Assembly (NCBI GenBank): GCA_963830455.1
Contig: CAWHMT010000004.1
Location: 434,644-498,643 of the forward strand
Reading direction: 5' to 3'
DNA: 64,000 nt
Source of the DNA: an uncultured Gemmatimonadales bacterium
Lineage (GTDB): Bacteria; Gemmatimonadota; Gemmatimonadetes; Gemmatimonadales; GWC2-71-9
Each line of letters starts with the position of its first letter. Position 1 is the first letter of the stretch. The notes beneath the pieces are model-generated. The model was not told the origin of the DNA. It saw only the letters and a list, made by a program, of their open reading frames with translations, and made no database searches. This document shows, piece by piece, positions 13,095 to 33,765 of the stretch. A program made the position numbers and the translations under genes.

Positions 13095-13166
<72 letters not shown>

Positions 13167-13177
13167 CTTCAGCCCGC

Positions 13178-17550: not shown

Positions 17551-18888
17551 TCAGTTCTCTCGAATCCTGCGCCCGGGGATGTTCTGCCCGTTCTGGTGCA
17601 GCGTCATGCCGTCGCGCGAGAACGTGATCTGCGCGTCGACGACGCGCAGGAAAAACGTCGAGTCGGACTCAGCGAAGATCGGGAAGCGCGGCTGGGCCGT
17701 CGCCTGGACGAACAGCCGCGCGGCTTCCCTCGTCACAACGACATGGAACGCGGGCGCCAGCTCGTACTCGCCGACGTAGCGCATCAGCACCGTCGAATCC
17801 ACGGCCACCTCGATGCGCCGCGTGGGAAGCGGACGCAGCGGGAACGTCTCATCCAGGAGATGAAAACCGATGTCATCGACACTCGCGTCGAAGTTGGACA
17901 GGACCACGACGCCTAACGCCCGCACCGGATCAAAGCCTGTGAATGAGCGGTAGCCGCCCGTCCCGCCGTTGTGCCACACGATGGTGCCGACCGGCCGCGC
18001 CAGAATGTGCCACCCGAGCCCGACCTTCATGCTCGGGTTATTGGTGGCGTGGCGCTCGCCGTGCGTGCGCCTGAGCGTCGGGGACAGCGGCGTCGCGCCG
18101 GAGTCGAGATTCGCCGCAATAAACGTCAGCATGTCGTTCACCGTCGACCGCAGCGCTCCCGCTCCCGCCAGCGTCGGCAGATCCCAGTTGGGCACCACTC
18201 GACCCTCGGCGTCGTGCCCGGGCGCGAGCCGCGCGCGCAGCGCCGGCGTCAGCGTGATCGCCGTTTCGCGCATGCCGAGCGGTGTGAGGATGCGCCCGCG
18301 CAGGAGCTCCTCGTAGCTCGCGCGCCCTTTCAGGGCCAGCGCGTGTCCAAGCAGTCCCATGCCGAGGTTCGAGTACTCGTATTCCGCGCCCACGTCCCGG
18401 GTGAGCTGATAGCCCGACAGAAACGTGTACAGCTGTTGCACGCTGTAGTCGGCATACGGATTCATCGTATCGCGCGGCGTGAGGTTCGAGGGCATGCGCG
18501 GCAGGCCGGAGGACTGGGTGGCCAGATCGAGCAGCGTGATCTCGCGGTCGTTGCGCGACGGCACTTTTACCGATCGTGGCAGGTACTGCGAGACCGCGTC
18601 GCCGAGCCGGACTTCCCCCCGGTCCACCATGTCCTGAAGCAGCGACGTGGTGAACACCTTGGTGATCGAGCCGATCTCGAACACGCCCGCAGAGTCCACT
18701 CCGGCGGCGATGATGCGCCGGGTGCCGGTCGCATCGAGCAAGCCGACGGCGATCCCCGCGCCGTGTTTGCCGGTGTCGGGCAGTGACGCGACGCGGGGCA
18801 GGAGCAACGCACGAACGGTCGAGTCGGCGGGCAGCAATGGCTGTTGCTGCAGCGTGACGGCGAGCGCGAACGCACGGAATAGGATCAT
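17551..18888 (-). CDS. Serine hydrolase, class C beta-lactamase/PBP family
   Basis: SxxK motif in FEIGSITKVFTT. YSN-like YEYSNLG. 445 aa with signal peptide. Confidence 0.85.
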   Translation of the reverse strand: MILFRAFALAVTLQQQPLLPADSTVRALLLPRVASLPDTGKHGAGIAVGLLDATGTRRIIAAGVDSAGVFEIGSITKVFTTSLLQDMVDRGEVRLGDAVSQYLPRSVKVPSRNDREITLLDLATQSSGLPRMPSNLTPRDTMNPYADYSVQQLYTFLSGYQLTRDVGAEYEYSNLGMGLLGHALALKGRASYEELLRGRILTPLGMRETAITLTPALRARLAPGHDAEGRVVPNWDLPTLAGAGALRSTVNDMLTFIAANLDSGATPLSPTLRRTHGERHATNNPSMKVGLGWHILARPVGTIVWHNGGTGGYRSFTGFDPVRALGVVVLSNFDASVDDIGFHLLDETFPLRPLPTRRIEVAVDSTVLMRYVGEYELAPAFHVVVTREAARLFVQATAQPRFPIFAESDSTFFLRVVDAQITFSRDGMTLHQNGQNIPGRRIREN

Positions 18889-18917
18889 CCGCTCGAATTT
18901 AGTATCTTCTCGCCGTC

Positions 18918-20657
18918 GTGCTCGTCCCCAAATTTTTCACCACCATCCAGGATTACAACCGGGAGCAGCTCACCCGGGACGTGATCGCGGGCGTCATCGT
19001 CGGCATCGTGGCGCTGCCGCTCGCCATCGCCTTCGCGATCGCCAGCGGGCTCAGTCCCGAGCGCGGACTCTACACCGCCATCGTCGCCGGCTTTCTCATT
19101 TCGCTGCTCGGCGGTTCACGTGTACAGATCGGCGGCCCGACGGGCGCGTTCGTGGTGATCGTCGCCGGCATCGTACACCAGCACGGGGTGGACGGCCTGC
19201 TCGTCGCGACATTGATGGCGGGCGCGATTCTCGTCGTGTTCGGCCTGGTGCGGCTTGGCGCCGCGATCAAGTTCATCCCGTTCCCGGTGACAATCGGGTT
19301 CACCAGTGGGATCGCGCTCATCATTTTTTCGAGCCAGGTAAAGGATCTGCTGGGCCTCGAGATGGGCCAGGCGCCCGCCGAGTTCCTCGCCAAGTGGGAC
19401 GCCTACGCCCGGGCGTTCGACTCGATGAACCCGTGGGCGTTCGCCGTCGCTGCGCTGGCCTTCACGATCATTCTTGTCTGGCCAAAGATCGAGCGCCGCA
19501 TCCCGGGGCCGTTCGTCGCACTGATCGTCACGACGGTGGTCGTGCAGGTGTTCCACGTGCCCGTCGAGACGATCGGCGCGCGGTTCGGGGTCATCCACGC
19601 GGGTCTGCCGCGGCCGTCGCTGCCGACGTTGACCATGCCGCTCATCACGTCGCTTGCAGGCCCCGCATTCACGATCGCGATGCTGGGGGCGATCGAGTCA
19701 CTGCTCTCGGCGGTCGTGGCCGATGGCATGATCGGCGGGCGGCACCGGTCCAACATGGAGCTGGTGGCGCAGGGCGTGGCGAACCTCGCGTCGCCGCTGT
19801 TCGGCGGCATGCCGGCGACCGGCGCCATCGCGCGCACGGCGACGAACGTGAAGAACGGCGGACGCACACCGGTCGCGGGAATCGTGCACGCCATCACGCT
19901 GCTCCTGATCACGCTGTTTTTCGGCCGCTGGGCGGGTCTCATCCCGCTGGCCACGCTCGCCGCGATCCTCGTCGTCGTGGCGTTCCACATGAGCGAATGG
20001 CGGACGTTCGTGTCGGAATTCCGCGCGCCCAAGAGCGACGTCGCGGTGCTGCTGACGACGTTTCTGCTCACGGTACTCGTGGACCTTACGGTCGCCATCG
20101 AGGTCGGCATGGTGCTCGCCGCCTTCCTCTTTATGCGCCGGATGGCGGAGGTCACGAACATCAAGGTCCTCACGCACGAGTTCGAGGACCCAACGGACGA
20201 CTTCGAGCACGACCCCAACGCCGTGCAACGGCGCGTGGTGCCGGAGGGCGTTCAGGTCTACGAGATCACGGGACCATTCTTCTTCGGCGCCGCCGAGATG
20301 TTCAAGGACCGGGTGACCCGCATTGCAGGCAAACCGAAGGTGCTGATTCTCCGGATGCGGCACGTGCCGGCGATGGATTCGACCGGGCTGCACGCATTGC
20401 GCGATGTCGTACGGCGTAGCCGCAACGAGGGGTCGCTCGTCATCCTGTCGGACGTGCACGCGCAGCCGGTCGTGGCCCTCGAGCGCTCGGGGACATACGA
20501 TGAGCTGGGCGAGGAAAACATCCATGGGAACATCGACGACGCCTTGAACCGCGCTCGGGAGCACCTCGGCCTGCCCCGGATGCCGCGGCCCGGCTTCGCC
20601 ACGCCCACGGTGGCGCGGGAGACGTCCCCCCCGACGGGGACGCCAGCGATGCCATAA
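18918..20657 (+). CDS. SulP-family anion permease with C-terminal STAS domain
   Basis: N-terminal ...DVIAGVIVGIVALPLAIAFAIASG, multiple TMs, STAS (VYEITGPFFFGAAEMF...LILRMRHVPAMDSTGLHAL). Confidence 0.9.
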   Translation: MLVPKFFTTIQDYNREQLTRDVIAGVIVGIVALPLAIAFAIASGLSPERGLYTAIVAGFLISLLGGSRVQIGGPTGAFVVIVAGIVHQHGVDGLLVATLMAGAILVVFGLVRLGAAIKFIPFPVTIGFTSGIALIIFSSQVKDLLGLEMGQAPAEFLAKWDAYARAFDSMNPWAFAVAALAFTIILVWPKIERRIPGPFVALIVTTVVVQVFHVPVETIGARFGVIHAGLPRPSLPTLTMPLITSLAGPAFTIAMLGAIESLLSAVVADGMIGGRHRSNMELVAQGVANLASPLFGGMPATGAIARTATNVKNGGRTPVAGIVHAITLLLITLFFGRWAGLIPLATLAAILVVVAFHMSEWRTFVSEFRAPKSDVAVLLTTFLLTVLVDLTVAIEVGMVLAAFLFMRRMAEVTNIKVLTHEFEDPTDDFEHDPNAVQRRVVPEGVQVYEITGPFFFGAAEMFKDRVTRIAGKPKVLILRMRHVPAMDSTGLHALRDVVRRSRNEGSLVILSDVHAQPVVALERSGTYDELGEENIHGNIDDALNRAREHLGLPRMPRPGFATPTVARETSPPTGTPAMP

Positions 20658-21358
20658 TGCAGCTGACCGTGCGCGAGGCGGCATCGTACCTGCGGGTCGA
20701 CGAGGCCACGGTGCGGCGCTGGATCGCCCGCCGCGCCCTTCCCGTCCATCGTGCCAACGAGCGGCTCTATCTGAACGCGATCGAGCTGTGGGAGTGGGCG
20801 ACAGAGAATGGGATCCCGGTCTCGCGCGCCCTGCTCGAGCAGGCGCAGCGCCGACCGGACCAGGTGCCGCCGCTATCAGCCCTGCTGCTCGTCGGCGGCA
20901 TTCATCATGACGTGGGCGGCAGCGATAAGCCCGGTGTGCTGCGCGAGATCGTTCAGCACCTCCCGCTGCCGGACGATGTCGATCGTGAGTTCCTGGTGAC
21001 GACGCTCGAGGCGCGGGAGGCGATGGGCTCCACGGGCATCGGGGACGGCATCGCCATCCCCCATGTGCGCAACCCTATCCTGCTGCACGTCACCGCTCCT
21101 TTCGTCACGCTGTGCTTGCTGCGGCACCCCGTGGACTTCGGCGCGCTGGATGGGCAGCCCGTCCACGCGTTGTTTACCGTGATCAGCGCCAACGTCCCTG
21201 GCCACCTCCGCATTCTCGGCCAGCTCGGCTTCGCCCTGCACGATGACGAGCTGCGACGCCTGCTGAGTCGCCGAGCGCCCGCGGCCGACATCCTCACGCG
21301 CGTACAAGCGGTCGAGGGGCGCGCCAGCGGCGTGCACCCGTCCCCCGCCGTCGAGTGA
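20657..21358 (+). CDS. Excisionase-type HTH fused to a PTS EIIA type-2 (PtsN-like) domain
   Basis: LTVREAASYLRVDEATVRRWI (HTH_17-like), then an EIIA-2 core with the phospho-His motif GDGIAIPHV. The start shares one nt with the sulP stop (TAATG). Confidence 0.8.
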   Translation: MQLTVREAASYLRVDEATVRRWIARRALPVHRANERLYLNAIELWEWATENGIPVSRALLEQAQRRPDQVPPLSALLLVGGIHHDVGGSDKPGVLREIVQHLPLPDDVDREFLVTTLEAREAMGSTGIGDGIAIPHVRNPILLHVTAPFVTLCLLRHPVDFGALDGQPVHALFTVISANVPGHLRILGQLGFALHDDELRRLLSRRAPAADILTRVQAVEGRASGVHPSPAVE

Positions 21359-21368
21359 GGAGGCGCCC

Positions 21369-23318
21369 GTGACGCTGGTCGCGCTCGGCTTGGCGCTGAT
21401 CGTGCTGGCCGGCTTGACCGCGGCCGTGCTGGCGCGGCGTCCGGCCGTGGGCGAGATGGTGTTCCGCATTCTGTTCGGCGCAGGGTGCACCCTGGGCGCG
21501 CTCCCGGCGCTGGCCGTGCTGGCGGGGAACACGGTGCCTGACGTGGGCCTGGCGTCGGCGACGCCGTTCGGGCCGTGGGTGTTCGGCCTCGACGCGCTCT
21601 CTGCCGTGTTCCTGTTGGCGGTGTTGAGCGTGGGCGCCGCCTGCGCGTTCTACGGATTGGCGTATCTCGCGCACGAGCGGACCCACCGCGCCGTTGGCGT
21701 CGCGCACTTGCTGCTGGCGGTGCTGGTCGCCACTCTCGCCCTCGTCGTGGTCGCGCGCGCCGCGCTGCCCTTCCTCATCGCCTGGGAAGGGATGGCGGTC
21801 GCGGCGTACTTGCTGGTGGTGTTCGAGCACGAGCGCCGCGAGGTGCGCCGCGCCGGCGGGATCTACGTGGTGGCCACGCACGTGGGGACGTTGCTCTTGT
21901 TCGCGCTGTTTGCGATCTGGGCGGGCGGCGGCAGTGATCTCAGCTTTGCGGCGCTGGCGGCGCATCCGCCATTCTCGGCGGGCCGGGGCGCGATGATCCT
22001 GGTCGTGGCGCTGATCGCGTTCGGGCTCAAAGCAGGCGCCGTCCCTTTCCACTTCTGGTTGCCCGAGGCCCATGCCGCGGCGCCGGCGCACGTTTCGGCC
22101 CTGATGTCAGGAGTCGTCATCAAGATGGGGATCTATGGGCTGCTGCGCACGATCGTCCTCTTCGGGACGCCGCCGCCCTGGTGGGGTTGGGTGCTGCTTG
22201 CGCTCGGAGCGGTCTCCGGGATCCTGGGGGTCGTGTGGGCCCTCGCGCAGCATGATGTCAAGCGGCTGCTCGCGTTCCACAGCGTGGAGAACATCGGGAT
22301 CATCCTGCTCGGCGTCGGGGCTGGCGCTCTGGGTGTCACGTACGGGCACCCGCTGATCGCCGTACTCGGCTTCGCCGGTGCCGCATTGCACACACTCAAT
22401 CACGCGCTCTTCAAGAGCCTCCTCTTTCTCGGCGCGGGGTCCGTGATCCACGCGACCGGCACCAGGGAGATTGACCGTCTCGGCGGGCTCGCGCCACGCA
22501 TGCCTTGGACCGCGGCCACATTCCTCGTCGGCTCGGCGGCCATCGTCGGGCTCCCCCCGCTCAACGGGTTCGTCAGTGAATGGGTGGTTTTCCAGGCCCT
22601 GCTCCGCGGGGCAAGCGCAGGGGGCGCGGTGCAGTTGGCGGGGCTGGCGGCCGTGGTCCTGGCGTTCATCGGGGCGCTGGCGCTTGCCTGTTTCGCAAAA
22701 GTGGTAGGAGTCTTGTATTTGGGGACGCCGCGACACGCCCTGGCGACGGAGCCGCGGGAGGCGACGCCGGCGATGATCCGGCCGCTCGTCGGCCTGGCCG
22801 CCGGGTGCGTCGTGATCGGGCTCCTCCCGATCGCGGTCGTGCCAGCGGCGCTCCGGGTCGGGTCGCTCGTCGCGGGCATGTCTCTCCAGGCGGATGTCGC
22901 CGCTGGCCCCGCGACCGCTTTTACTGTCGGGCTCGCGCTGAGTCTGCTGGTGGCATGGGGGCTATACGTCGGGCTCGGTCACCGGCGTCAACGGCTCGAG
23001 GCAGCGACCTGGGGCTGCGGGTATCCGGCGCCGACGCCTCGCATGGCGTACACAGCGAGCTCATTCGCGGCCCCACTACTTGACGTCTTTCGGTCGTTCT
23101 CGGGCGTCCATACACGCCGCACGGCCGACGCATTTTCCACCCACGCGATCGACCCCGTCCTGGACAGCGTCCTGCTTCCCGCCTGGCGCGGCGCCCGCGG
23201 GGCGGCGGCGTGGGTGCGCCGAGTGCAGCGCGGCGGGTTGTCGCGCTACCTGCTGCTCATTGGCGCCGCCGTCGTCGCGTCGCTGCTCTACCTCCTCGTG
23301 GCTGGGCGGAATCCGTGA
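21369..23318 (+). CDS. NuoL/HyfB/MnhA-like proton-conducting antiporter subunit
   Basis: 649-aa polytopic protein with WLPEAHAAAPAHVSALMSGVVIKMG and FHSVENIGIILLG motifs of the Proton_antipo_M family. Confidence 0.85.
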   Translation: MTLVALGLALIVLAGLTAAVLARRPAVGEMVFRILFGAGCTLGALPALAVLAGNTVPDVGLASATPFGPWVFGLDALSAVFLLAVLSVGAACAFYGLAYLAHERTHRAVGVAHLLLAVLVATLALVVVARAALPFLIAWEGMAVAAYLLVVFEHERREVRRAGGIYVVATHVGTLLLFALFAIWAGGGSDLSFAALAAHPPFSAGRGAMILVVALIAFGLKAGAVPFHFWLPEAHAAAPAHVSALMSGVVIKMGIYGLLRTIVLFGTPPPWWGWVLLALGAVSGILGVVWALAQHDVKRLLAFHSVENIGIILLGVGAGALGVTYGHPLIAVLGFAGAALHTLNHALFKSLLFLGAGSVIHATGTREIDRLGGLAPRMPWTAATFLVGSAAIVGLPPLNGFVSEWVVFQALLRGASAGGAVQLAGLAAVVLAFIGALALACFAKVVGVLYLGTPRHALATEPREATPAMIRPLVGLAAGCVVIGLLPIAVVPAALRVGSLVAGMSLQADVAAGPATAFTVGLALSLLVAWGLYVGLGHRRQRLEAATWGCGYPAPTPRMAYTASSFAAPLLDVFRSFSGVHTRRTADAFSTHAIDPVLDSVLLPAWRGARGAAAWVRRVQRGGLSRYLLLIGAAVVASLLYLLVAGRNP

Positions 23319-24226
23319 GCGGGGCAGGACTGATTGGCGTGGGCATCTTGGGGGCTGTTGCCCCGGCGATGCCGGGAATCGCCGCGAAGACCAAGTCGCT
23401 GCTGACGGGGCGGCGCGGCCCGCCCGTGCTCCAGCTCTACGCCGATCTCGGAAAGCTGCTGCGCAAAGGCAGCGTCTACAGTCGCACGACGACGTGGGTG
23501 TTCCGCGCTGGCCCGGTCGTCGTGCTGGTCACGCTCGCCGTGGCGGTGCTGCTCCTCCCGCTCGACGGGCGCGAGGCACCCGCTCGCTTCACCGGCGATC
23601 TGGTGGCGTTCGCCGGGTTACTGGCGCTCGGGCGATTCGCGCTGGTGCTGGCGGGGCTGGATACGGGGTCGAGCTTCGAGGGGCTCGGGGCGAGTCGCGA
23701 GGTCACGATCGCGAGCTTCGCCGAGCCCACGCTGTTCCTCTGCTTCATCGCGCTGGTGCTCGCGACGGGGGATCTCTCGCTCAGTGGGATGCTGGGGACA
23801 CCGCTGGCCGCAGCGTGGCCTCGCGCGGGTGCATCGCTGAGTCTGGTGGGCATCAGTCTCTTCGTTCTGCTGTTGGCCGAGAACTCGCGCGTGCCGGTCG
23901 ATGATCCCGCGACGCACCTCGAATTGACCATGATCCACGAGGTGATCGTGCTCGACCACGGCGGACCGGACCTCGCCCTGATCCTCTATAGTAGCGCGCT
24001 GAAGCTTGCGCTGTTCGGGGTGTTGGTGGTGGCGGTCTTTGTGCCTCGTGCGGGGTTCGGGGGGCCGGCGGCGCTGGCCTTGCTGTTCGCGGGGCTCGGC
24101 GTCGTGGCCGTGGCGGTCGGAGTGGTGGAGTCGATCATGGCGCGGCTCCGGTTGGCCCGCGTGCCACAGCTGCTGGTTGGGGCGGGGACCCTGGCGCTGT
24201 TTGCCACGATCCTGCAGCTCGGATGA
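23315..24226 (+). CDS. NuoH/HyfC/HycD-like membrane subunit
   Basis: GTG start in a GTGA overlap. PGIAAKTKSLLTGRRGPPVLQLYADLGKLLRKG... and AENSRVPVDDPATHLELTMIHE are typical HycD/NuoH motifs. Confidence 0.8.
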   Translation: MSGAGLIGVGILGAVAPAMPGIAAKTKSLLTGRRGPPVLQLYADLGKLLRKGSVYSRTTTWVFRAGPVVVLVTLAVAVLLLPLDGREAPARFTGDLVAFAGLLALGRFALVLAGLDTGSSFEGLGASREVTIASFAEPTLFLCFIALVLATGDLSLSGMLGTPLAAAWPRAGASLSLVGISLFVLLLAENSRVPVDDPATHLELTMIHEVIVLDHGGPDLALILYSSALKLALFGVLVVAVFVPRAGFGGPAALALLFAGLGVVAVAVGVVESIMARLRLARVPQLLVGAGTLALFATILQLG

Positions 24227-24864
24227 CCATGCGCGACGCCGCTCCGATCGTCCTGCTGCTGGTGGTGCTCTCGGATCTCGCGATCCTTGGCACGTCGCGG
24301 CTCAGCAGCTGTATTCGCGGGCTGGCGGCGCAGGGCTTCCTGCTTGGCTTGCTGCCGGTACTGATCGCGCCGCAGCTCTCGGTCCACGCCGTGAGTCTCG
24401 CGGTGGGCACGGTGATCGTGAAAGGCGTGGCGCTGCCGTGGTTCCTCTCGTGGGCGATTCGTGAGGCCGCGGTGCGCCGCGAGATCGAGCCGATCGTCGG
24501 GTTCATCGCGTCCCAACTCCTCGGGGTGCTCGCGGTCGCGCTCGCGTTCGCAATCGCCACCCGCCTTCCCTTGCACACCGTCCAACCGCTGCTGGTGCCA
24601 GTCTCGCTCGCAACGCTGATGATCGGATTCATCGTGCTGACCACCAGACGCAAAGCGCTGGTGCAGGTGGTAGGCTATGTCATCCTCGAGAACGGCGTCT
24701 ATCTCTTCGGCCTGACGCAGACCGAGAGTGTGCCGTTTCTCATCGAGCTGGGAGTGCTACTGGACGTCTTCGTCGGTGTGTTCATCATGGGTATCGTCGT
24801 GTTCCACATCAATCGCGAATTCGATTCGCTCGATGCGACGCGCCTGACGGAGCTGACGGACTGA
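24223..24864 (+). CDS. HyfE-like (NuoK-related) membrane subunit
   Basis: ATGA overlap. ...TTRRKALVQVVGYVILENGVYLFGL... is the HyfE signature. Confidence 0.7.
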   Translation: MTMRDAAPIVLLLVVLSDLAILGTSRLSSCIRGLAAQGFLLGLLPVLIAPQLSVHAVSLAVGTVIVKGVALPWFLSWAIREAAVRREIEPIVGFIASQLLGVLAVALAFAIATRLPLHTVQPLLVPVSLATLMIGFIVLTTRRKALVQVVGYVILENGVYLFGLTQTESVPFLIELGVLLDVFVGVFIMGIVVFHINREFDSLDATRLTELTD

Positions 24865-26318
24865 TGCGCTTGCTCGCGCTGTGCGCGATCCCTCTGGTCA
24901 CGGCGCTGGTGGTGTTGGGCGTGCCGGTCTTCCGGGGACGGCGGGTACCCGTGGCGCTGCTCCTCGTTGTCGCGGCTGCGCACCTGGCACTGGTCATCTC
25001 CCTGTGGATCACGCCCGCGCTTCCCGCGCTCGGCGGGTGGCTGGCCGCCGATCCGCTCGGGCTTGCCGTCCTGACGCTGACCAGTGTGCTGTTCCTGGTC
25101 ACGGCGATCTACATCGTCGGGTACCTGCGGCACGAGGCGCCGCGCAGCGGCCGTGTGTTCGCGGGCGGCCTGCTCGCGTTCCTGGCGGCGGCGTCCGTCG
25201 TAGCACTGTCCCACCACCTGGCGATGCTCTGGGTCGGCATGGAGGCAACGACGCTGTCGGTCGCGCCGCTCGTGTTCCTGCACCGCGACCGCCGCTCGCT
25301 CGAGGCGACGTGGAAGTACCTCGTCGTCTCGTCGGTCGGAATCGCGCTCGCGTTGCTGGGCACCTTCTTCCTTGCGAGCGCGCAGGGCGAGATCGGTCGC
25401 CCGTTACTGCTCCCCGACCTCATCGCGCATGCCCGCGAGCTGCATCCGGCATGGTTGCGCGCCGCCTTCCTGTTTCTCCTGGTCGGCTTCGGCACCAAGA
25501 TGGGCCTCGCTCCGATGCATACGTGGAAGCCCGACACGTACGGAGAAGCACCGAGTCTTGTCAGCGGTCTCATGGCGGGCTCGCTGACGAGCTGCGCGTT
25601 CCTCGGAGTCGCGCGTATCACCGAGGTCCTGGCCGCCGCCGGGCTGGTGTCGTTCGTGCAGCCGGTGCTCATCGCGTTCGGCCTGCTCTCGCTGGTCGTC
25701 GCGGCGACGTTCATCATCGGTCAGCGTGACGTGAAGCGGCTGCTCGCGTACTCGAGCGTGGAGCACATGGGCCTGCTTGTGCTCGGACTGGGGCTGGGCG
25801 GCGTCGGGGCGTACGGCACCATGCTCCACCTCGTCAACAACGGTCTGGCGAAGGGGTGGATGTTTCTGGTCACGGGCAACATTGTGCTCGCCACCGGGAG
25901 CGCGACGGCGGCCGCAAACCGGGGACTGGCCCGCACGCTCCCCGCGTCGGCGACGCTACTTGTGCTGGGCCTGTTCGCCGTCACCGGCTCGCCCCCGTTC
26001 GGGCTCTTCCTCAGCGAATTCACGATTCTGCGGGCGGCCATTGACGGCGGGCACGCGTGGATCGCCGTGATCATCCTCGTGACGCTGGCGGTCATCTTCG
26101 TCGGCATGGCGGCGTTGGTGCTCGGGATCGTACTCGGCACACCTCCCGCTCCCGCCGGCACAGCACGCCGCATCGCTCCGGCGCGAGAGAGCCCGTGGCT
26201 GATCGCGGGGCCCATCGCCTTGGCTGTCATCGTGCTGATGCTTGGCGTCTACCTCCCCGGCCCGCTGCAGGACGTTCTGACGCGTGCGGCACTAGCCCTC
26301 GGCGGACGAGGACCATGA
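24864..26318 (+). CDS. NuoM/N / HyfF-like antiporter subunit
   Basis: 484-aa polytopic protein. GFGTKMGLAPMHTWKPDTYGEAPSLVSGLMAG and AYSSVEHMGLLVLGLG motifs. Confidence 0.85.
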   Translation: MRLLALCAIPLVTALVVLGVPVFRGRRVPVALLLVVAAAHLALVISLWITPALPALGGWLAADPLGLAVLTLTSVLFLVTAIYIVGYLRHEAPRSGRVFAGGLLAFLAAASVVALSHHLAMLWVGMEATTLSVAPLVFLHRDRRSLEATWKYLVVSSVGIALALLGTFFLASAQGEIGRPLLLPDLIAHARELHPAWLRAAFLFLLVGFGTKMGLAPMHTWKPDTYGEAPSLVSGLMAGSLTSCAFLGVARITEVLAAAGLVSFVQPVLIAFGLLSLVVAATFIIGQRDVKRLLAYSSVEHMGLLVLGLGLGGVGAYGTMLHLVNNGLAKGWMFLVTGNIVLATGSATAAANRGLARTLPASATLLVLGLFAVTGSPPFGLFLSEFTILRAAIDGGHAWIAVIILVTLAVIFVGMAALVLGIVLGTPPAPAGTARRIAPARESPWLIAGPIALAVIVLMLGVYLPGPLQDVLTRAALALGGRGP

Positions 26319-27832
26319 ACTCGCTGCGCAAGCCGGGTCTTCGTAACCGACGCGCCATCCCGTGGGGAACGGTTTCCGTAGAGCCGATGGAGCGCTTCCG
26401 GGAATCTGTGGCGGAGGCTGTGGCCGGCGGATGGCGGGTGGCGTCGCTTTTCGGCATGCCGGAAGAGCACGACCAGACGCGCCTCGTCGCGATCCTAGCG
26501 GACGACGCCGAGGGGCAGCTCGGTGTGACGAGCGCAGTCGCTGGGGATCGCTTTCCGTCGCTCGCGATGGCGGTTCCCCAGGTCCACGGGTTCGAGCGCG
26601 AAATCGCCGAGCAATGCGGCGTGGTTCCCGAGGGTCATCCCTGGCTCAAGCCCCTGCGCCGGCATCCACCCGACCACCTTTCGCCCGGCCGGCGCGTTGC
26701 GCTGCCGGACCGCGAGGCGTACCCCTTCTTTCAGATCGCGGGAGAGGAAGTGCACGAGGTCGCCGTCGGGCCCGTGCACGCGGGCATCATCGAGCCCGGC
26801 CATTTCCGGTTTCAGGCACACGGCGAGCAGGTGTTGTTCCTCGAGATCATGCTCGGCTATCAGCACCGCGGCGTGGAGCCGCTGCTCGAGCGCCTGGGGG
26901 GGGACCGCGAGCGGGGCGTTCTCGTGGCCGAGTCGATCGCGGGCGATACGGTCATCGGCCACGCCGGCGCCTATTGCGGTGCGATCGAAGCGATCGCCCG
27001 GAGCCGGAAGACCCCGCGCGGGCAAACCGTACGCGGGATCGCGCTCGAGCTGGAGCGGTTGGCGAATCACATCGGCGATCTTGGCGCGATTGCCGCGGAC
27101 GTCGCCTTCCAGCCGGCGGCGGCTTACCTGGGTCGCATGCGCGGCGATTGTCTCAATCTGCTGATGACGCTTTCCGGCAGCCGCTACGGGAGAGGTCTGG
27201 TACGGCCGGGGGGCGCGGCGTTCGACCTCACCCCGGCTATGGCCGGCGAGATGCGCGATCGGCTGCAGCGCCTCGGCGAGGAGCTCGATCCGGTCCTCGC
27301 CCTGTTGTTCGAGACGGCGTCGGTCCAGGCCAGGCTCGAGGGCGTCGGCGTGGTGTCCCGGCAGGCGTGTGTCGAGTACGGCTTCGTCGGCCCAGTCGCG
27401 CGGGCGTGCGAGCTGCCGCGCGACGTGCGGCACGATCACCCCTGGGGAATCTTCCGGTTCGCCCACATCCCGGTGGCCACGGCGTGGGCCGGAGACGTGC
27501 TTGCGCGTGCGCTGGTCCGCCGCGTGGAGATCCAGCGGTCGCTCGAGTTCATCGTCGAGCAGCTCGGTGCGCTGCCCAAGGGCCCAGCGCGTGTGGAGTG
27601 CGGACCCCTGCGACCGAACGAGATGGCGGTGGCGATGGTCGAGGGCTGGCGGGGCGAGATCGTACATGTCGTGATAACCGACGGCGCCGGCCGCGTCCGC
27701 CGGCACAAGGTGACCGATCCCTCCTTCCACAACTGGACTGCCCTCACGCTGGCGATGCCCGGGAACGAGATCTCCGATTTCCCGCTCTGCAACAAGAGCT
27801 TCAACCTGTCGTACGCGGGGCACGACCTGTGA
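26315..27832 (+). CDS. Fused NuoC-NuoD / HycE-HyfG-like 'large subunit' lacking all four NiFe-ligand cysteines (Ehr-type)
   Basis: ATGA overlap. VGPVHAGIIEPGHFRF...GYQHRGVE core. Where hydrogenases carry R-x-C-G-x-C-x3-H it reads ESIAGDTVIGH, and where they carry D-P-C-x2-C-x2-R it reads DFPLCNKSFNLSYAGHDL. Confidence 0.85.
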   Translation: MNSLRKPGLRNRRAIPWGTVSVEPMERFRESVAEAVAGGWRVASLFGMPEEHDQTRLVAILADDAEGQLGVTSAVAGDRFPSLAMAVPQVHGFEREIAEQCGVVPEGHPWLKPLRRHPPDHLSPGRRVALPDREAYPFFQIAGEEVHEVAVGPVHAGIIEPGHFRFQAHGEQVLFLEIMLGYQHRGVEPLLERLGGDRERGVLVAESIAGDTVIGHAGAYCGAIEAIARSRKTPRGQTVRGIALELERLANHIGDLGAIAADVAFQPAAAYLGRMRGDCLNLLMTLSGSRYGRGLVRPGGAAFDLTPAMAGEMRDRLQRLGEELDPVLALLFETASVQARLEGVGVVSRQACVEYGFVGPVARACELPRDVRHDHPWGIFRFAHIPVATAWAGDVLARALVRRVEIQRSLEFIVEQLGALPKGPARVECGPLRPNEMAVAMVEGWRGEIVHVVITDGAGRVRRHKVTDPSFHNWTALTLAMPGNEISDFPLCNKSFNLSYAGHDL

Positions 27833-27848
27833 GGCGAGGCGGCGTGCC

Positions 27849-28511
27849 GTGTTGACCTGGCTCAGAACGAGACTCCGGGAGGGAATCCGGACGATTCGCT
27901 TCCCCGGAAATGGCGCGGATTTCCCGGAGCGGTTCCGAGGCCGGCCCCGAGGGTCCTCGGATCTCGGCACGTGTCTCTTCAGCCCGGAGGAGGTCGAATA
28001 CAGCCGCGATTATCGCATGGCCACATCCACACGGGAGGCGTTGGTCAGCCCCACCGGCGAGGTCAAGCTCGCCCGCGCCCTGGACGAGCGCGCGCGGAAG
28101 TTGTTCCGGCGCTCGCTGCGGCTCCGCTCGGTTGTCGCGGGGAGCTGCAACGGGTGCGAAGCCGAGCTCGTCGCGCTCGGAAACGTGGTGTTCGACTTAG
28201 CGCGATTCGGCGTCCAGTTCGTCGCCTCGCCGCGGCACGCCGACGGTATCGTCGTCACTGGCGCGGTGAACCGGAACATGCGGCGCGCGCTGGAGCTGAC
28301 GTATGAAGCAGTCCCACCGCCGAAGATCGTGATCGCGGTCGGGGCCTGCGCTATCAGCGGGGGCCCGTTTGTGGGCAGTCCCGAGGTCGGCACAGGCGTC
28401 GGCGAGATCCTCCCGGTAGACCTGTGGGTGCCGGGGTGCCCACCGCACCCGCTCACGACGCTCGACGGTCTGCTCCGCTTGCTGGGGGCGATCGACGGCG
28501 AGGAATCTTAG
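27849..28511 (+). CDS. NuoB/HycG-HyfI-like small subunit (one 4Fe-4S site) with a vestigial HycF/NuoI-like N-terminus
   Basis: GSCNGCE, VGACAISGG and VPGCPPHP provide the four Cys. The N-terminal ~90 aa start TIRFPGNGADFPERFRGRP (HycF/NuoI-like) but contain no CxxCxxCxxxCP motif. Confidence 0.8.
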   Translation: MLTWLRTRLREGIRTIRFPGNGADFPERFRGRPRGSSDLGTCLFSPEEVEYSRDYRMATSTREALVSPTGEVKLARALDERARKLFRRSLRLRSVVAGSCNGCEAELVALGNVVFDLARFGVQFVASPRHADGIVVTGAVNRNMRRALELTYEAVPPPKIVIAVGACAISGGPFVGSPEVGTGVGEILPVDLWVPGCPPHPLTTLDGLLRLLGAIDGEES

Positions 28512-29494
28512 CGCGCCTCGAACATTCCCACCGCGCCCTTCGTGGCGTCCGCAAACGCGTGACTGACGAAGGGGTACGTGCCCGGCTCCACAAGACGCGT
28601 CTCGAAGATCGCGCCCCCTCCGACAGGGACTGTGACCGTCTGCACTCCCTCGAGGGGATGCGTGAGCGAACCGTCGAGGTACACTCTGTCAAAGATGGCC
28701 CCGACTACGTGGAACGCTGAGAAGCGATTGGGGCCCGCGTTCACGACATACATGCGCAGTTTTTCGCCGACGCCGACGCGAATGGGGTGATGCGCGTACT
28801 CCGCCTCGCGGCCGTTGAACACGACGTAGTCCGGCGCCAGTCCCAACAGCTTCTCCCAATCGATGATGCGGCTCGAGTCGGCGAGCGTTTTCGTGTAGAA
28901 CTCGCTTTGGACAAACACAAACTCCTTCGCTGGGGCGCGCCCTTCGCGTGGATCGACGATGATGGCGCCGTACATCCCGTTCGCGATGTGCAGCGCGACC
29001 GGTGCGGTGCCGCAGTGATACATGAACGCTCCCGGCACGTGCGGCACAAACCGATAGTGCAGCGAGTCGTGGGGCATCAGGTTCACGTAGGCGCGGCTCG
29101 GCGCGATCTCGGCCGCGTGGAAATCCAGGCTGTGCGGCATGGGGGCCTCGTTCACGAGCGTGAAGTCCACTGTGTCCCCGACGGTGACGCGCAGGACGGG
29201 TCCCGGCACCCGGCCGTCGAACGTCCAGGCGTCGTACGTCACGCCTTGTGCGATCGTGATTTTCATATGGCGAATGGCAACGCGGAGGCGATGCAAGCGT
29301 CCCGTTGCGCGGGCGGGCGCGACGGGATCGATGGGGGCGGGCAGCTCACCTGAACCGACCGGCGCCTCGCCGTGCGATACATCTGCCGGAGCCGTCGCGG
29401 GTGGGGTCTCGGCGTGCTGTGTCGGTCGAGACTCCGGCTCACGGCAGGCGCACAATGCAACAGCTGTAAGAAGGGATAATCCGTGACGGCGCAT
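28508..29494 (-). CDS. nirK: Copper-containing nitrite reductase (NirK-type two-domain cupredoxin), lipoprotein form
   Basis: MPHSLDFHAAE (T1 His, catalytic Asp, T2 His), MYHCGTAPVALHIANGMYG (T2 His, T1 Cys/His/Met), FHVVGAIFD, PFVSHAF. Signal peptide with LCAC, then a Pro/Ala-rich linker. Confidence 0.8.
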   Translation of the reverse strand: MRRHGLSLLTAVALCACREPESRPTQHAETPPATAPADVSHGEAPVGSGELPAPIDPVAPARATGRLHRLRVAIRHMKITIAQGVTYDAWTFDGRVPGPVLRVTVGDTVDFTLVNEAPMPHSLDFHAAEIAPSRAYVNLMPHDSLHYRFVPHVPGAFMYHCGTAPVALHIANGMYGAIIVDPREGRAPAKEFVFVQSEFYTKTLADSSRIIDWEKLLGLAPDYVVFNGREAEYAHHPIRVGVGEKLRMYVVNAGPNRFSAFHVVGAIFDRVYLDGSLTHPLEGVQTVTVPVGGGAIFETRLVEPGTYPFVSHAFADATKGAVGMFEAR

Positions 29495-29504
29495 CTAATC
29501 GCTC

Positions 29505-29531
29505 CTTCCTGATGGCTTCAGGGGCTCTTCA
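29505..29531. promoter_or_regulatory. Three phased CTTC[CA] repeats (CTTCC-N6-CTTCA-N6-CTTCA) in the nirK / CBS divergent region
   Basis: Units start at 29505, 29516 and 29527 (11-bp spacing). The 16-mer CTTCCTGAnnnCTTCA recurs at 54201. Confidence 0.45.
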
Positions 29532-29574
29532 TCTGAAAAGGGCGTACGTGTCTTTGTACCCTCGAGGAGGACCC

Positions 29575-29976
29575 ATGAAGGTCGCCGAGCTGATGCAGAC
29601 GAGTCTCAAGACGATCAGCAGCGAAGCCACCATCGCCGACGCCGTCGTCGTCTTCGCCGAGGCGCAAGTTTCGGCCGTGCCGGTTATCGATCGTCTGGGA
29701 CGCGCGGTCGGCGTGGTGTCGACGCGCGAGATCCTCAAGGCCGAAAGCGCGTGCGATTCGCCGCTTGCCCGCGATCGGTTGTTCGAGCGCACGCGCGTGC
29801 TCGAGATCATGACGCCCTGGCCGGTGACCATCGGTCCTGATCTCGACGTCCGGCTGGCCGCGCAGGAGATGCTCTATCTCAACGTGCAGCGACTGTTCGT
29901 CGAGTTTGACGGCGCGCTCGTGGGCGTCATCTCCCAGACGGATATCGTGGGGGCGGTGGCGACTGCCAAAGTCTAG
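29575..29976 (+). CDS. CBS-domain pair protein
   Basis: Two CBS motifs (VSAVPVIDRLGRAVGVVSTREI; VQRLFVEFDGALVGVISQTDI). GGAGG 5 nt upstream of the ATG. Confidence 0.85.
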   Translation: MKVAELMQTSLKTISSEATIADAVVVFAEAQVSAVPVIDRLGRAVGVVSTREILKAESACDSPLARDRLFERTRVLEIMTPWPVTIGPDLDVRLAAQEMLYLNVQRLFVEFDGALVGVISQTDIVGAVATAKV

Positions 29977-30473
29977 GTCCGGCGCAGCACCGACCAGCGG
30001 CCCGTCTGAGTGATCCCGGACTGCAACCGCGTCGTGTAGGTACCCTCGATCGCATTGCCTTTGAGTTCCCCGGCGAACGTCGTCGACAGACGCTCACCGG
30101 TTTGGGGATCGGCATAGGCATCCAACGTGCCGCTGACCCGCCCTTGCTCCACGCGCACGAATCGAATCGTGAGGACGGTGGTCGCCGCCGACGCGGTCGG
30201 ACTGGCGATCTGCCCCTCCGTGTACGGCGTCACGGGGCGGCCCAACCCCTTGGGAATCATGACCACGTCGCCGAACGCGGAGTCGCCGGTCGCGCGCAGC
30301 GTAAAGCTGATGCTGCCGCTGCGGCCCGACTCCCCGCTGCTGTACTCGCCGGCCCATTCGCCGGTCAGAGCGGCGACGTCCGTGGCTGCGCCGACGAGTG
30401 GAACGGGTGGGCGTGAAGCGCCACACGCGCTGAGCATGAAGGCCAGAAGCGGGAGTGTTGGAAGACGAGCCAT
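29973..30473 (-). CDS. Hypothetical lipoprotein
   Basis: MARLPTLPLLAFMLSAC lipobox. Start set at the internal ATG 30473. Confidence 0.6.
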   Translation of the reverse strand: MARLPTLPLLAFMLSACGASRPPVPLVGAATDVAALTGEWAGEYSSGESGRSGSISFTLRATGDSAFGDVVMIPKGLGRPVTPYTEGQIASPTASAATTVLTIRFVRVEQGRVSGTLDAYADPQTGERLSTTFAGELKGNAIEGTYTTRLQSGITQTGRWSVLRRT

Positions 30474-30551
30474 GATCGCCTCGCGGTCGTGGGTGTGCGT
30501 GTAACGCGCGACGGCGGGCGCGCTGCCCGTCCTTAAGATGAAGCCTGATGC

Positions 30552-31814
30552 ATGAATTGTCACTGTGGCCGGCATGAAGCATTATCTCGTGTGCCCTCGG
30601 CAGGCGAAGCGACCCGAGTTCGGGAGCGGTTCGAACGGCTACTCGCGGCCGGCGTGGCGATCTTCTCGCGACACGAGCTCGCGCACGTGCTGCAGGAGGT
30701 CGTAGACGCCGCTCGTGACGTTGTCGGCGCTCGCTACGCCGCGCTCGGCGTCCTTGGACCGGACGGAACGAGCTTCGTGCAGTTTGTAACGTCGGGCATG
30801 GAGGAAGCCGCGCGGCAGCGGATCGGCGATCCTCCGCGCGGACGCGGTCTGCTGGGTCTGGTGATCCGCGAAGGCAAGCCCATCCGCAGCGCCGACATCA
30901 ATCGCCACCCGCAGCGCTACGGATATCCGCCGCACCATCCGCCGATGACGTCGTTTCTGGGCGTGCCGGTGAAAGGGCGTGGCGGCGCCTTCGGCAATCT
31001 GTATCTCACCGAGAAGATCGATGCGTCTGAGTTCAGCGACGAAGATGAAGCGATCGCCGTGCTGCTCGCCGCGCAAGCGGCGGTCGCCGTCGAGAATGCG
31101 CGCCTGCTGACTGAGAGCGAGCAGCTCGTGGGCCAGATTCGCGCGATGCAACGCCAACGCGACTTGTTTTTCGCGATGATGAACCACGAGCTGCGCAACG
31201 CGCTCACCGGCGTGTACGGCTGGGCGGAGCGGCTGGTGCGCCGGAAAACGCCCGACGTCTCCGACCGAGCTGCGCGTGAGGTGTACGAAGCGGCCGACCG
31301 CACGATCGTGCTCATGAACAACTTCCTCGATCTCATGCGGCTCGATGCGGGGAAGATCCGGCCAGTCATCCGGGAAGTGGACACCCAGGCCGTGGTGCAG
31401 CGGGCCATTACGACCAGCGAGCCGGCCGCGGCGGCGAAACAGCAAAGTCTACGGGTCGTTTTGGACGGCGCCCCCGCTACTCTGCACACCGACTCCGTGC
31501 GACTCGAGCAGATCCTCGTGAATCTCTTGTCCAATGCCATCCGGCACAGTCCGGGACTAGCGTCTGTCTCTGTGAAGGTCGAGGCGGCGCCGAACGGCGT
31601 GACGTTTTTCGTCATCGATCATGGGCCCGGTGTGCCGCTCGAGCTGCGCGAGCGGATCTTCGAGCCGTTCGAGCGCTTCGATCCCCACTCGGGGCATGGG
31701 ACCGGGCTTGGCCTCCCCGTATCGCGGGGGCTGGCAGAGGCACTGGGGGGCAGCCTGACGGTGGAAGAGACAGCTGGCGGTGGCGCGACTTTCATCCTTA
31801 AGATTCCTTCATGA
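30552..31814 (+). CDS. Soluble GAF-domain sensor histidine kinase
   Basis: GAF (GLLGLVIREGKPIR...FLGVPVKGRGGAFGNLYLTEK), HisKA (MNHELRNALTGV), HATPase (IDHGPGVP...GTGLGL). No TM segment. The start may be GTG 30591. Confidence 0.85.
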   Translation: MNCHCGRHEALSRVPSAGEATRVRERFERLLAAGVAIFSRHELAHVLQEVVDAARDVVGARYAALGVLGPDGTSFVQFVTSGMEEAARQRIGDPPRGRGLLGLVIREGKPIRSADINRHPQRYGYPPHHPPMTSFLGVPVKGRGGAFGNLYLTEKIDASEFSDEDEAIAVLLAAQAAVAVENARLLTESEQLVGQIRAMQRQRDLFFAMMNHELRNALTGVYGWAERLVRRKTPDVSDRAAREVYEAADRTIVLMNNFLDLMRLDAGKIRPVIREVDTQAVVQRAITTSEPAAAAKQQSLRVVLDGAPATLHTDSVRLEQILVNLLSNAIRHSPGLASVSVKVEAAPNGVTFFVIDHGPGVPLELRERIFEPFERFDPHSGHGTGLGLPVSRGLAEALGGSLTVEETAGGGATFILKIPS

Positions 31815-31817
31815 ATC
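31795..31817. promoter_or_regulatory. AT-rich motif cluster TCCTTAAGATTCCTTCATGAATC upstream of the response-regulator gene
   Basis: Contains TCCTTAAGAT (also at 30530), AAGATTCCTTCA (also at 35890), the palindrome TTCATGAA and GATTC-N6-GAATC. CCTT[ACT] units at 31796, 31806 and 31817. Confidence 0.5.
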
Positions 31818-31857
31818 CTTTAGAAATGGTTCAACGCTCCGCTGCTAGCGTGCCTGC

Positions 31858-33611: not shown

Positions 33612-33621
33612 GGAGGGTTTG

Positions 33622-33765
33622 ATGCCCGTCACGGCTCCAAAGCAGGAGACCGAGCACCCCCGTGGCACACTGTTCCTGATCGGCTTGTATGGCGTGGTGT
33701 TCGCCGCCGCATGGTTCGCCGTCTACTTCCTCGTGTATCTCCACCGTGGCGGGGTGACGCCATGA
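33622..33765 (+). CDS. cbaD: ba3-type cytochrome oxidase subunit IIa-like single-TM peptide (47 aa)
   Basis: GGAGGG SD. HPRGTLFLIGLYGVVFAAAWFAVYFLVYLHRGG resembles Thermus subunit IIa. ATGA overlap with the subunit II gene. Confidence 0.55.
   Translation: MPVTAPKQETEHPRGTLFLIGLYGVVFAAAWFAVYFLVYLHRGGVTP

Follow-up and report, generated by a model that had tools for sequence, protein, structure and literature searches.

Ehr (Ech/energy-converting hydrogenase-related) complexes are relatives of the Ech and Hyf hydrogenases that lack a NiFe site and constitute a known orphan family. In Geobacter sulfurreducens, Ehr is encoded by GSU0739-GSU0745, with the subunit names EhrA, EhrC, EhrL and EhrS, and its role "has never been investigated" (PMC7894505). 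Ehr occurs in about half of the Nitrospirales genomes and in Geobacter and mycobacterial relatives, and is explicitly left out of the hydrogenases by HydDB. Papers on Nitrospira, on siblings of the Cyanobacteria and on mycobacteria up to 2025 give no function to it. MtlR-, LicR- and ManR-type activators combine a helix-turn-helix (HTH) with a C-terminal EIIA(Mtl)-like domain, and histidine phosphorylation sets their activity. The EIIA-Ntr protein PtsN controls TrkA and KdpD. In its unphosphorylated form, PtsN binds and inhibits the K+/H+ antiporter YcgO (PMC11808508). Here we describe a 64-kb stretch of DNA (about 67% G+C) from an uncultured Gemmatimonadales bacterium, referred to as the window, in which eight genes join an Ehr cassette to a SulP permease and an HTH-EIIA protein. 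The reading that we favour, with a little more than even confidence, is that the unit encodes an ion-translocating Ehr complex that is not a hydrogenase, is regulated by an HTH-PtsN protein and has SulP as a facultative partner.

The eight open reading frames (ORFs) fill positions 18918-28511 of the forward strand, and the ORF list places all of them where an earlier note on this DNA, made from the sequence alone, had put them. That note had described tightly packed genes on one strand, and every junction it named can be read from the sequence. The SulP stop overlaps the ATG of HTH-EIIA (TAATG, 20654-20658). HTH-EIIA ends in TGA and is followed by a 10-nucleotide (nt) gap containing GGAGG and by the GTG of ehrA at 21369. 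Overlaps then link ehrA to ehrB (GTGA, 23315), ehrB to ehrC (ATGA, 24223), ehrC to ehrD (TGATG, 24862-24866) and ehrD to ehrL (ATGA, 26315), and a 16-nt gap precedes the GTG of ehrS at 27849. Pfam and NCBIfam profile matches agree with the gene order given in the note, SulP/STAS, HTH-EIIA and then HyfB-, HyfC-, HyfE-, HyfF-, NuoCD- and NuoB-like subunits. The domains, the order and the loss of the NiFe ligands bear out its assignment of the cassette to Ehr-type, cysteine-less relatives of hydrogenase-4 and complex I.

Family membership is supported by a survey in which one genome per GTDB species was scanned with an EhrL alignment and the best 80 of at least 599 confirmed matches were taken. 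These 80 loci come from Gemmatimonadota, Planctomycetota, Verrucomicrobiota, Geobacterales/Desulfuromonadales, Omnitrophota, Spirochaetota, Acidobacteriota, Bacteroidota, Actinomycetota and Myxococcota. Phmmer searches of the eight window proteins against six-frame ORFs reveal an invariant core of HyfB, HyfC, HyfE, HyfF, EhrL and EhrS. The ehrA-B-C-D-L-S order of the window recurs in the 80 loci, including those of Geomonas limicola and of Geobacter metagenome-assembled genomes (MAGs). EhrL of the window is 46-55% identical to its counterparts outside the Gemmatimonadota among the 80 and about 50-54% identical to those of the recovered Geobacterales loci (51-54% for L018, L020, L030 and L041), a comparison outside which the sequences of G. 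sulfurreducens PCA lie. By domain content and gene order, the window cassette is assigned to the Ehr family. The closest relatives of EhrL, SulP and HTH-EIIA are Gemmatimonadales or Gemmatimonadota MAG proteins throughout; for SulP and HTH-EIIA, all sequences returned by protein searches were from Gemmatimonadales and 81-99% identical. Two loci, L041 (13179-20506) and L055 (2220-10001), contain a second, more divergent Ehr/Hyf-like cluster beside the first, with a large subunit scoring about 270-280 versus about 500 bits.

The window cassette shares with Geobacter Ehr the same set and order of subunits, comprising NuoL-, NuoH-, HyfE- and NuoN-like proteins, a NiFe-less NuoCD-like protein and a NuoB-like protein. 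However, the two display several differences. The window has a single EhrA; several loci, among them L030 of the Geobacterales, have two. The dicluster domain of EhrS is reduced in the window to a cysteine-less remnant, the cassette lies behind a SulP gene, and the HTH is divergent and lacks the associated TGTCN repeat. By sequence, the SulP fusion, the loss of the ferredoxin domain and the divergent HTH are the lineage-specific features of the window.

E. coli Hyf/Hyc (7z0s) provides the best sequence match for every subunit of the window complex (HyfB, C, E, F, G and I), and the best solved relative of EhrL is HycE (7z0s_E, 170 bits). Source annotations also name relatives of EhrL "Ni,Fe-hydrogenase III large subunit". 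The complex might therefore be thought of as a true [NiFe] hydrogenase or formate hydrogenlyase, with ligands missed by misalignment and maturation genes in another part of the genome, an idea to which we give almost no credence. EhrL was aligned with 110 diverse representatives, true group-4 hydrogenases included. In this one alignment, the bona fide relatives carry ERICGVCxxSH and CYSCTDR, with both CxxC motifs, whereas window EhrL has ESIAGDTVIGH and SYAGHDL at the places where RxCGxCxxxH and CxxCxxR are expected. All four NiFe cysteines are gone, in line with the earlier note, and the alignment effectively refutes a [NiFe] hydrogenase identity. Most of the 150 best EhrL representatives likewise lack the NiFe ligands. 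Unlike Hyf/Hyc, the window also lacks HyfA/HyfH-type ferredoxins, HyfD and HyfJ. The note had recognised no formate dehydrogenase, hyp gene or maturation protease, and a Pfam scan of some 40 large ORFs in the 64 kb finds none of these and no CooS, small ORFs lying outside the scan. The exclusion of Ehr from the hydrogenases in HydDB points the same way.

The resemblance of EhrL to complex I does not extend to its quinone ligands. In a HMMER alignment with Thermus Nqo4 (2fug_4), which compares sequences only and across loops of different length, His38 falls on EhrL I159 and Tyr87 on G210, so that a canonical complex-I quinone site is not recognisable in the aligned sequence. Three residues, E206, G210 and D211, are near-invariant across the EhrL family.

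The small subunit EhrS retains the four cysteines of an N2-type cluster (C100, C103, C167 and C197). These are the only cluster ligands left in EhrS, as the earlier note had proposed in assigning a single iron-sulphur (FeS) site to the complex. The note had also found no intact HycF/NuoI ferredoxin, a point that can now be sharpened. Residues 1-95 of EhrS are homologous to the HycF/NuoI-type dicluster ferredoxin domain of other phyla, which has two motifs and eight cysteines. The window sequence reads ..TIRFP..FPERFRGRP..LGTCLFSPEE.. versus ..CxxCxxCxxxCP..GxCLFCxxCxxxCP.. elsewhere; one cysteine motif is deleted and the other decayed, leaving a single cysteine and no cluster ligands. Pfam detects no Fer4 domain in window EhrS, whereas EhrS of L013, L037 and L030 consists of a Fer4 dicluster followed by Oxidored_q6. 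Within the Gemmatimonadota the decay is graded, with five, two or one N-terminal cysteines.

The dicluster motifs were also lost independently in Omnitrophota and partly in Geobacter loci. Among 74 EhrS sequences, 18 are devoid of the dicluster motif but keep all four N2-type cysteines. The opposite pattern is seen in six (L011, L026, L049, L060, L076 and L079), which lack two to four N2-type cysteines and keep the eight N-terminal ones; PGWPP, PGFPP or PGNPP replaces PGCPP in examples of these. Judged from these cysteine patterns, the FeS wire is cut in roughly a third of the family, and at different places. These natural cuts speak against classical electron transfer as the conserved function.

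A minimal respiratory role is another reading. The complex could act as an oxidoreductase between ferredoxin, or another low-potential donor, and quinone, like NDH-1, Fpo and the 11-subunit complex I, and conserve energy in a microaerobic or denitrifying island. The intact N2-type site, the presence of NuoH, NuoB and NuoD homologues with pumping residues, and the full dicluster domain kept in most other phyla would fit this role. So would the neighbourhood, which holds the NirK-like gene, cytochrome oxidase genes, a GAF histidine kinase and Usp. In the Gemmatimonadaceae locus L006, the gene directly upstream of HTH-EIIA (3906-4298) has a weak match to thioredoxin-like [2Fe-2S] ferredoxins (23.4 bits, just under the cut-off); its product could be an electron donor where EhrS still has five N-terminal cysteines. 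The window complex, however, differs from complex I and NDH-1 in having no NuoI-type 2x[4Fe-4S] subunit to take up electrons and no equivalents of Nqo4 His38 and Tyr87. Moreover, no electron-input module recurs beside Ehr in about 60 loci, and some Ehr members lack the N2 ligands themselves. Ferredoxin:quinone oxidoreduction may apply to Ehr members whose FeS chain is complete; it fits the window poorly, and we regard it as improbable here.

The progressive loss of FeS ligands, from five to two to one N-terminal cysteines, and the presence or absence of the cassette among close relatives raise the question of whether the operon is a decaying relic, shedding cofactors on its way to pseudogenisation and functionless now. 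The ratio of nonsynonymous to synonymous substitution rates (dN/dS) against L001, an 88% relative, lies between 0.08 and 0.15 across all eight genes, with 0.11 for SulP, 0.08 for HTH-EIIA, 0.11 for EhrL and 0.08 for EhrS. All eight genes are under purifying selection, and, because of these ratios, none is regarded as a pseudogene. Even the ferredoxin remnant of EhrS gives 0.22. The eight ORFs are intact and translationally coupled, the pumping residues are conserved, and more than 120 clusters of 71-97% identical EhrL are found in the Gemmatimonadota. A relic is thus a very unlikely explanation, though a less remote one than hydrogenase activity.

The membrane arm is built from the HyfB/NuoL-type EhrA, the NuoH-like EhrB, the HyfE-like EhrC and the HyfF/NuoN-type EhrD. 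Inspection of the sequences by eye locates E139 in transmembrane helix (TM) 5, K221 in TM7, K252, K348 and E404 in EhrA, and E127, K212, K330 and E385 in EhrD. Both proteins keep the TM5 glutamate, the TM7 lysine, the TM12 glutamate and the further lysines of working antiporter-like subunits. EhrB carries the NuoH-type acidic motif LAENSRVPVDDPATHLELTMIHE, likewise recognised by eye, and L001 has a matching 303-residue gene call. The membrane arm therefore appears intact as to its charged residues. The two MrpA/MrpD-type subunits with intact Glu and Lys are also a likeness to the Mrp (CPA3) antiporters. Unlike Mrp, the window has no MrpB, C, E, F or G and possesses NuoH-, NuoB- and NuoCD-like subunits. 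By analogy, a non-redox, Mrp-like ion exchange is plausible where the FeS sites have been lost.

The protein encoded directly before ehrA fuses an excisionase/MerR-type winged helix to a PtsN-type EIIA, and confirms the phosphorelay-type component proposed in the earlier note. The family profile matches E. coli PtsN (1a6j) with 84 bits. G131, A133, P135, H136 and H183 are invariant; H136, in the sequence GIAIPH, aligns with His73 of PtsN and is present in 16 of 16 sequences. On these matches the EIIA domain is classed as PtsN-type. The window protein shares with PtsN the GIAIPH phospho-histidine and the second histidine. It is, however, not a canonical PtsN, with its additional N-terminal HTH_17 domain and a gene that lies within the operon of its presumed target, and no ptsP, ptsO or rpoN is seen among the scanned ORFs of the window. 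The combination of an HTH with a PTS_EIIA_2-type domain recalls the MtlR/LicR/ManR activators in a functional comparison only. In contrast to these, the protein has no PRD or EIIB-like domain, bears an excisionase/MerR-type HTH and is far smaller (233 residues).

HTH-EIIA is tied to Ehr in both directions. Enough upstream DNA is available for 56 Ehr loci, and in 45 of them, from many phyla, HTH-EIIA adjoins hyfB. Conversely, metagenome contigs were scanned with an HTH-EIIA alignment, and hyfB follows in 34 of the 37 full-length relatives that have at least 1 kb of downstream sequence. All-against-all clustering of flank ORFs makes HTH-EIIA the only large recurrent flank family (41 loci). Formate dehydrogenase, NuoEF and carbonic anhydrase were sought as further recurrent neighbours in the flank-ORF clusters; apart from HTH-EIIA and SulP, what recurs there is histidine kinases, ABC ATPases and sigma-54 regulators of a generic kind. 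Pfam scans reveal nothing systematic upstream of the 11 Ehr loci lacking EIIA. Across phyla, Ehr has no other strongly conserved neighbour, and HTH-EIIA is almost never found without Ehr. No paper linking PtsN or EIIA to Ehr was found in the searchable literature, whose coverage does not include the founding Ehr papers. Some loci have paired HTH-EIIA paralogues, in tandem or flanking the Ehr cluster: L002 (2357-3076 and 12533-13240), L003 (1552-2343 and about 2350-3053), L114, L118, L119 and L129.

A candidate operator accompanies this gene in many loci of several phyla. Tandem TGTCC-like repeats with a 10-bp period precede the HTH-EIIA start, often just after TTGACA. In 20 of 53 loci, the 250 nt before the start carry the pattern TGTCN-N5-TGTCN on the coding strand, compared with 5 of 4924 control 250-nt windows of the same loci (Fisher 3e-37); it lies at -39 to -84 from the start codon in the 16 listed cases that form the TGTCC-containing subset. 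Of the 31 loci whose HTH is of the type E[KR]T[IV]Y.W...[YFH]RF, 19 have the repeat, versus 1 of the 22 others (p = 2.8e-5). Repeat and HTH recognition residues thus co-vary, suggesting that HTH-EIIA is a DNA-binding autoregulator in the TGTCN-bearing clade. In the window clade the HTH is divergent (DEATVRRWI...RLYLNA), with the wing RLYLNA in place of YRFNR. The repeat is absent throughout the 64-kb window and from the Gemmatimonadota loci, and no common 8- or 9-mer was found upstream in these.

These observations bear on whether HTH-EIIA acts as a regulator or as a part of the machine. It could be mainly a stoichiometric regulatory subunit or plug whose binding to an antiporter-like subunit, or to the peripheral arm, depends on phosphorylation, as that of PtsN to YcgO, TrkA and KdpD does, with the DNA role of the HTH lost in the window clade. 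Its near-exclusive occurrence with Ehr would suit a subunit, as would the 3-10 nt gaps or overlaps between HTH-EIIA and hyfB and the persistent pairing of the EIIA gene with one hyfB copy on a divergent arm in the Geobacter loci L018, L041 and L056. The changed wing and the missing repeat of the window clade, together with the YcgO precedent, are also compatible with it. However, the HTH is still strongly conserved in the window clade, where it evolves under purifying selection, the covariation of repeat and HTH type speaks for a DNA-binding role in the family, and the contact between HTH-EIIA and Ehr is proposed by analogy. We consider the plug a rather unlikely alternative, which partly overlaps with the favoured reading.

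The permease at the head of the operon has a Sulfate_transp membrane domain and a C-terminal STAS domain and is placed in the SulP/SLC26 family. It scores above the TIGR00815 sulP cut-off (405.6 > 380.45 bits) and below the NCBIfam equivalog cut-off for DauA (535 < 614 bits). The nearest solved structures are SLC26Dg (5da0, 177 bits) and BicA (6ki1, 171 bits). The earlier note had suggested coupling to the uptake of sulfate, bicarbonate or another anion, and had pointed to DAB, cyanobacterial NDH-1/Cup and BicA. With the CO2-hydration systems DAB, MpsAB and cyanobacterial NDH-1/CupA and with BicA, the window shares a NuoL-family subunit near a possible inorganic-anion transporter. The inorganic-carbon reading finds no specific marker and was set aside. 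Pfam scans reveal no DabA (PF10070), CupA/ChpX-type or carbonic-anhydrase-like protein in the operon or its flanks, and the permease reaches 285 bits against a BicA equivalog cut-off of 880.

The note had further described SulP as hard-wired to the complex. The description holds for the window lineage, where SulP stands within the same tight gene string, but not as a conserved property. A SulP of the window type is present in 5 of the 56 informative Ehr loci, and the Gemmatimonadota loci L002, L003 and L006 have EIIA-Ehr without SulP. Conversely, L163 and L164 carry a SulP 84-86% identical to that of the window in a matching neighbourhood with no EIIA or Ehr gene at all. There SulP is followed by a copper-oxidase/NirK-like gene, a CBS protein, a hypothetical protein, a GAF histidine kinase, a response regulator and a HAMP kinase; cytochrome oxidase subunits II/I come next in L163, and a P-type ATPase occurs in both. 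The divergent beta-lactamase-family gene upstream of SulP is common to the window and L164. In L165 and L166, a nosZ cluster occupies the slot behind SulP that holds the Ehr cassette in the window. Thus, of the adjacency that the note had linked to SulP and EIIA together, the EIIA part is family-wide, and the SulP part fails because it is not conserved in relatives, the outcome by which the note itself would have judged it refuted.

The SulP proteins are conserved through ...FATPTVARE and diverge in the last 5-10 residues only, and no more than about 30 nt separate their conserved C-terminus from the cassette junction. The simplest reading of these sequences is that SulP is the resident gene, that a variable slot follows it, filled here by the seven-gene cassette (HTH-EIIA and ehrA, B, C, D, L and S), and that the cassette is now read from the SulP promoter. 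For the window, the SulP link is therefore a lineage-specific operon fusion at a variable slot and not an ancestral module. The SulP-nirK slot of relatives is empty or filled with a nos cluster or an Ehr cassette.

The start codons of SulP and the divergent beta-lactamase-family gene are 29 nt apart, and the space between them contains an AT-rich element, GAATTTAGTATCTTC, that may be the promoter. Its core, ATTTAGTATCTTC, is kept upstream of SulP in the window, in L001, where the upstream gene differs from that of the window, and in L164, where the Ehr cassette is missing; the element therefore travels with SulP and not with Ehr. The nearness of the AT-rich block to the SulP GTG suggests a very short or absent 5' leader. 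A scan of 18000-30000 for promoters and terminators with a simple sigma-70 model gave no site and nothing above chance.

The association of SulP with Ehr nevertheless recurs in three phyla, and in clustering of all flank ORFs SulP is the second recurrent family (six loci including the window). The overlap of the SulP stop with the EIIA start is seen in the window, L001 and L083. A co-directional SulP lies directly upstream of EIIA or hyfB in L025 (Omnitrophota) and in L037, L050 and, as a fragment, L047 (Verrucomicrobiota), and SulP abuts or slightly overlaps EIIA on the unassigned metagenome contigs L116 and L121. The Ehr-linked SulPs of other loci constitute one subfamily, 46-60% identical to that of the window. 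Their loci are scattered among nearest neighbours without SulP, which implies repeated gain. We estimate, without formal computation, that five adjacencies in 56 loci are far above chance for the one to three SulP genes of a genome. A stand-alone pair of HTH-EIIA and SulP exists in L127, with no Ehr gene within the 10-kb contig piece around it. The link is probably not a pure accident. Given its recurrence in three phyla and the stand-alone pair, SulP is still a plausible facultative partner of HTH-EIIA/Ehr in function, whereas an obligate module is not supported.

Such an obligate module, in which the Ehr ion pump energises SulP or is mechanically coupled to it for the uptake of bicarbonate, sulfate or dicarboxylate under EIIA control, seems to us unlikely but worth stating. 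It would account for the stop/start overlaps, the independent SulP-EIIA adjacency in L025, L116 and L121, the co-directional SulP at the operon head in L037 and L050, the common subfamily and the repeated gain. It would also fit the position of SulP as the only recurrent non-regulatory flank family and the L127 pair with its TGTCN repeat. Against it stand the low frequency of SulP beside Ehr, Ehr without SulP in L002, L003 and L006, SulP in identical synteny without Ehr in L163 and L164 and the nosZ cluster of L165. The inorganic-carbon markers are missing, as described above, and a search of the SulP-linked loci from other phyla found no TGTCN repeat ahead of the SulP gene.

The favoured reading can be drawn together as follows. 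The Ehr complex would not be a hydrogenase, and this lineage could not run an electron-transfer chain like that of Hyf or complex I. The complex would most likely work as a regulated translocator of monovalent cations or protons, with the peripheral arm and its single FeS cluster gating or sensing instead of catalysing. HTH-EIIA would be the dedicated regulator, its PtsN-type domain taking up a phosphorylation signal on H136 from an NPr/HPr-type input. The closest precedent for such control is PtsN, which binds and controls the cation/proton antiporter YcgO. In the major clade, the HTH would bind DNA at the tandem TGTCN repeats. In the Gemmatimonadota clade, with its diverged HTH and no repeat, expression would most simply come from the SulP promoter, and EIIA may act mainly through protein contacts. 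SulP would be a facultative, repeatedly recruited partner that uses the ion gradient or is co-regulated with it, and not a core component.

Several points weigh against this proposal. The literature still assigns no function to Ehr (PMC12342949, PMC10284858), and the transport, redox and DNA-binding roles of Ehr and HTH-EIIA are all predicted activities. Of the 74 EhrS sequences, 65 keep all four N2-type cysteines, and in 52 of these the dicluster motif is retained as well, so that a redox role may be ancestral and persist in most Ehr members. The single cluster of the window complex could itself still be redox-active. The charged residues of the membrane arm were recognised as motifs by eye and not on a structure. 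The candidate operator occurs in only about 40% of the loci and in none from the phylum of the window, making the argument for DNA binding indirect for the window protein. Finally, a joint transcript of SulP and the cassette in the window is predicted from the gene overlaps.

A wider version, which we offer as speculative and doubtful, is that HTH-PtsN and Ehr constitute a widespread signal-controlled ion-translocation system derived from a cofactor-shedding hydrogenase. The former catalytic arm would gate or sense and be read by a PtsN-type protein that also binds the TGTCN operator, and SulP would be recruited repeatedly because the complex provides or balances the ion to which anion uptake is coupled. 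If a signal-controlled translocator is the right reading, the long-orphan Ehr family gains a function and signalling of the PTS-Ntr type is linked to complex-I-like machines. Ehr is found in many phyla, and twenty years after its naming a function is still to be assigned. Three handles on the problem are now available: a near-exclusive HTH-PtsN partner with an invariant phospho-histidine, a candidate operator and natural cuts in the FeS chain. The family-wide partner, the operator and the pattern of FeS loss appear to be new to the searchable literature. The operator and its covariation with HTH type make regulation testable in cultured carriers such as Geomonas limicola, and the main value of the window is as an entry point to Ehr. 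The coordinates of the features are collected in Table 1.

Table 1. Features of the eight-gene unit and its boundaries in the window, and related elements in other loci.
Feature	Position	Strand	Matches and remarks
Beta-lactamase-family gene	17551-18888	-	Divergent; upstream boundary of the eight-gene unit
AT-rich element GAATTTAGTATCTTC (putative promoter)	18895-18909	+	9-23 nt before SulP GTG; TAGTAT resembles a -10 box
SulP/SLC26-family anion permease, C-terminal STAS, 579 residues	18918-20657	+	Pfam Sulfate_transp 3.2e-86, STAS 4.3e-17
HTH-EIIA, HTH_17 (excisionase/MerR-type winged helix) fused to PtsN-type EIIA, 233 residues	20657-21358	+	PTS_EIIA_2 (PF00359) 3.9e-21, HTH_17 6.8e-9
EhrA, HyfB/NuoL-type antiporter-like subunit, 649 residues	21369-23318	+	Proton_antipo_M 7.3e-56; NCBIfam hydrogenase 4 subunit B 537 bits, residues 3-641
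EhrB, HyfC/NuoH-like subunit, 303 residues from GTG	23315-24226	+	NADHdh 1.6e-31
EhrC, HyfE-like small membrane subunit, 213 residues	24223-24864	+	NCBIfam PRK11492 83 bits (cut-off 136); Pfam Oxidored_q2 weak
EhrD, HyfF/NuoN-type antiporter-like subunit, 484 residues	24864-26318	+	Proton_antipo_M 6.6e-49; NCBIfam hydrogenase 4 subunit F 343 bits
EhrL, fused NuoC+NuoD / HyfG-like large subunit, 505 residues	26315-27832	+	Complex1_49kDa 3.3e-39; Complex1_30kDa weak
EhrS, NuoB/HyfI-like small subunit with 95-residue N-terminal remnant	27849-28511	+	Oxidored_q6 1.6e-29
NirK-like gene	28508-29494	-	Convergent with ehrS; downstream boundary of the eight-gene unit
HTH-EIIA then SulP/STAS (36% identical to that of the window), stand-alone pair	L127 5791-8466		TGTCN repeat upstream, GroEL gene downstream
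Loci with TGTCN-N5-TGTCN			L009, L013, L016, L017, L019, L022, L024, L029, L042, L059, L081, L091, L092, L101, L104, L107, L110, L113, L114, L127

The surroundings of the operon contain further genes. The NirK-like protein, a two-domain cupredoxin resembling copper nitrite reductases, is 80% identical to the copy beside the nosZ cluster in L165. Beyond it, 29512-38676 encodes CBS, GAF histidine kinase, OmpR-type regulator, HAMP kinase, COX2/COX1, Usp and P-type ATPase proteins, and the region around the NirK-like gene looks like a microaerobic or denitrification-type island. Downstream, two P-type ATPases are encoded at 36766-38676 and 47565-50180 (+), the second with Cation_ATPase_N and Cation_ATPase_C domains; they share their region with an ADP-forming acyl-CoA synthetase-like gene, an erythromycin esterase and an L,D-transpeptidase. 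On the other side of the operon, 7089-8564 and 8646-9971 (+) encode tandem full-length glutamine synthetases (Gln-synt_N and Gln-synt_C, each about 1e-134). The sole Rfam or ARAGORN match in the 64 kb is a tRNA-Cys (GCA) at 13095-13167 (+).

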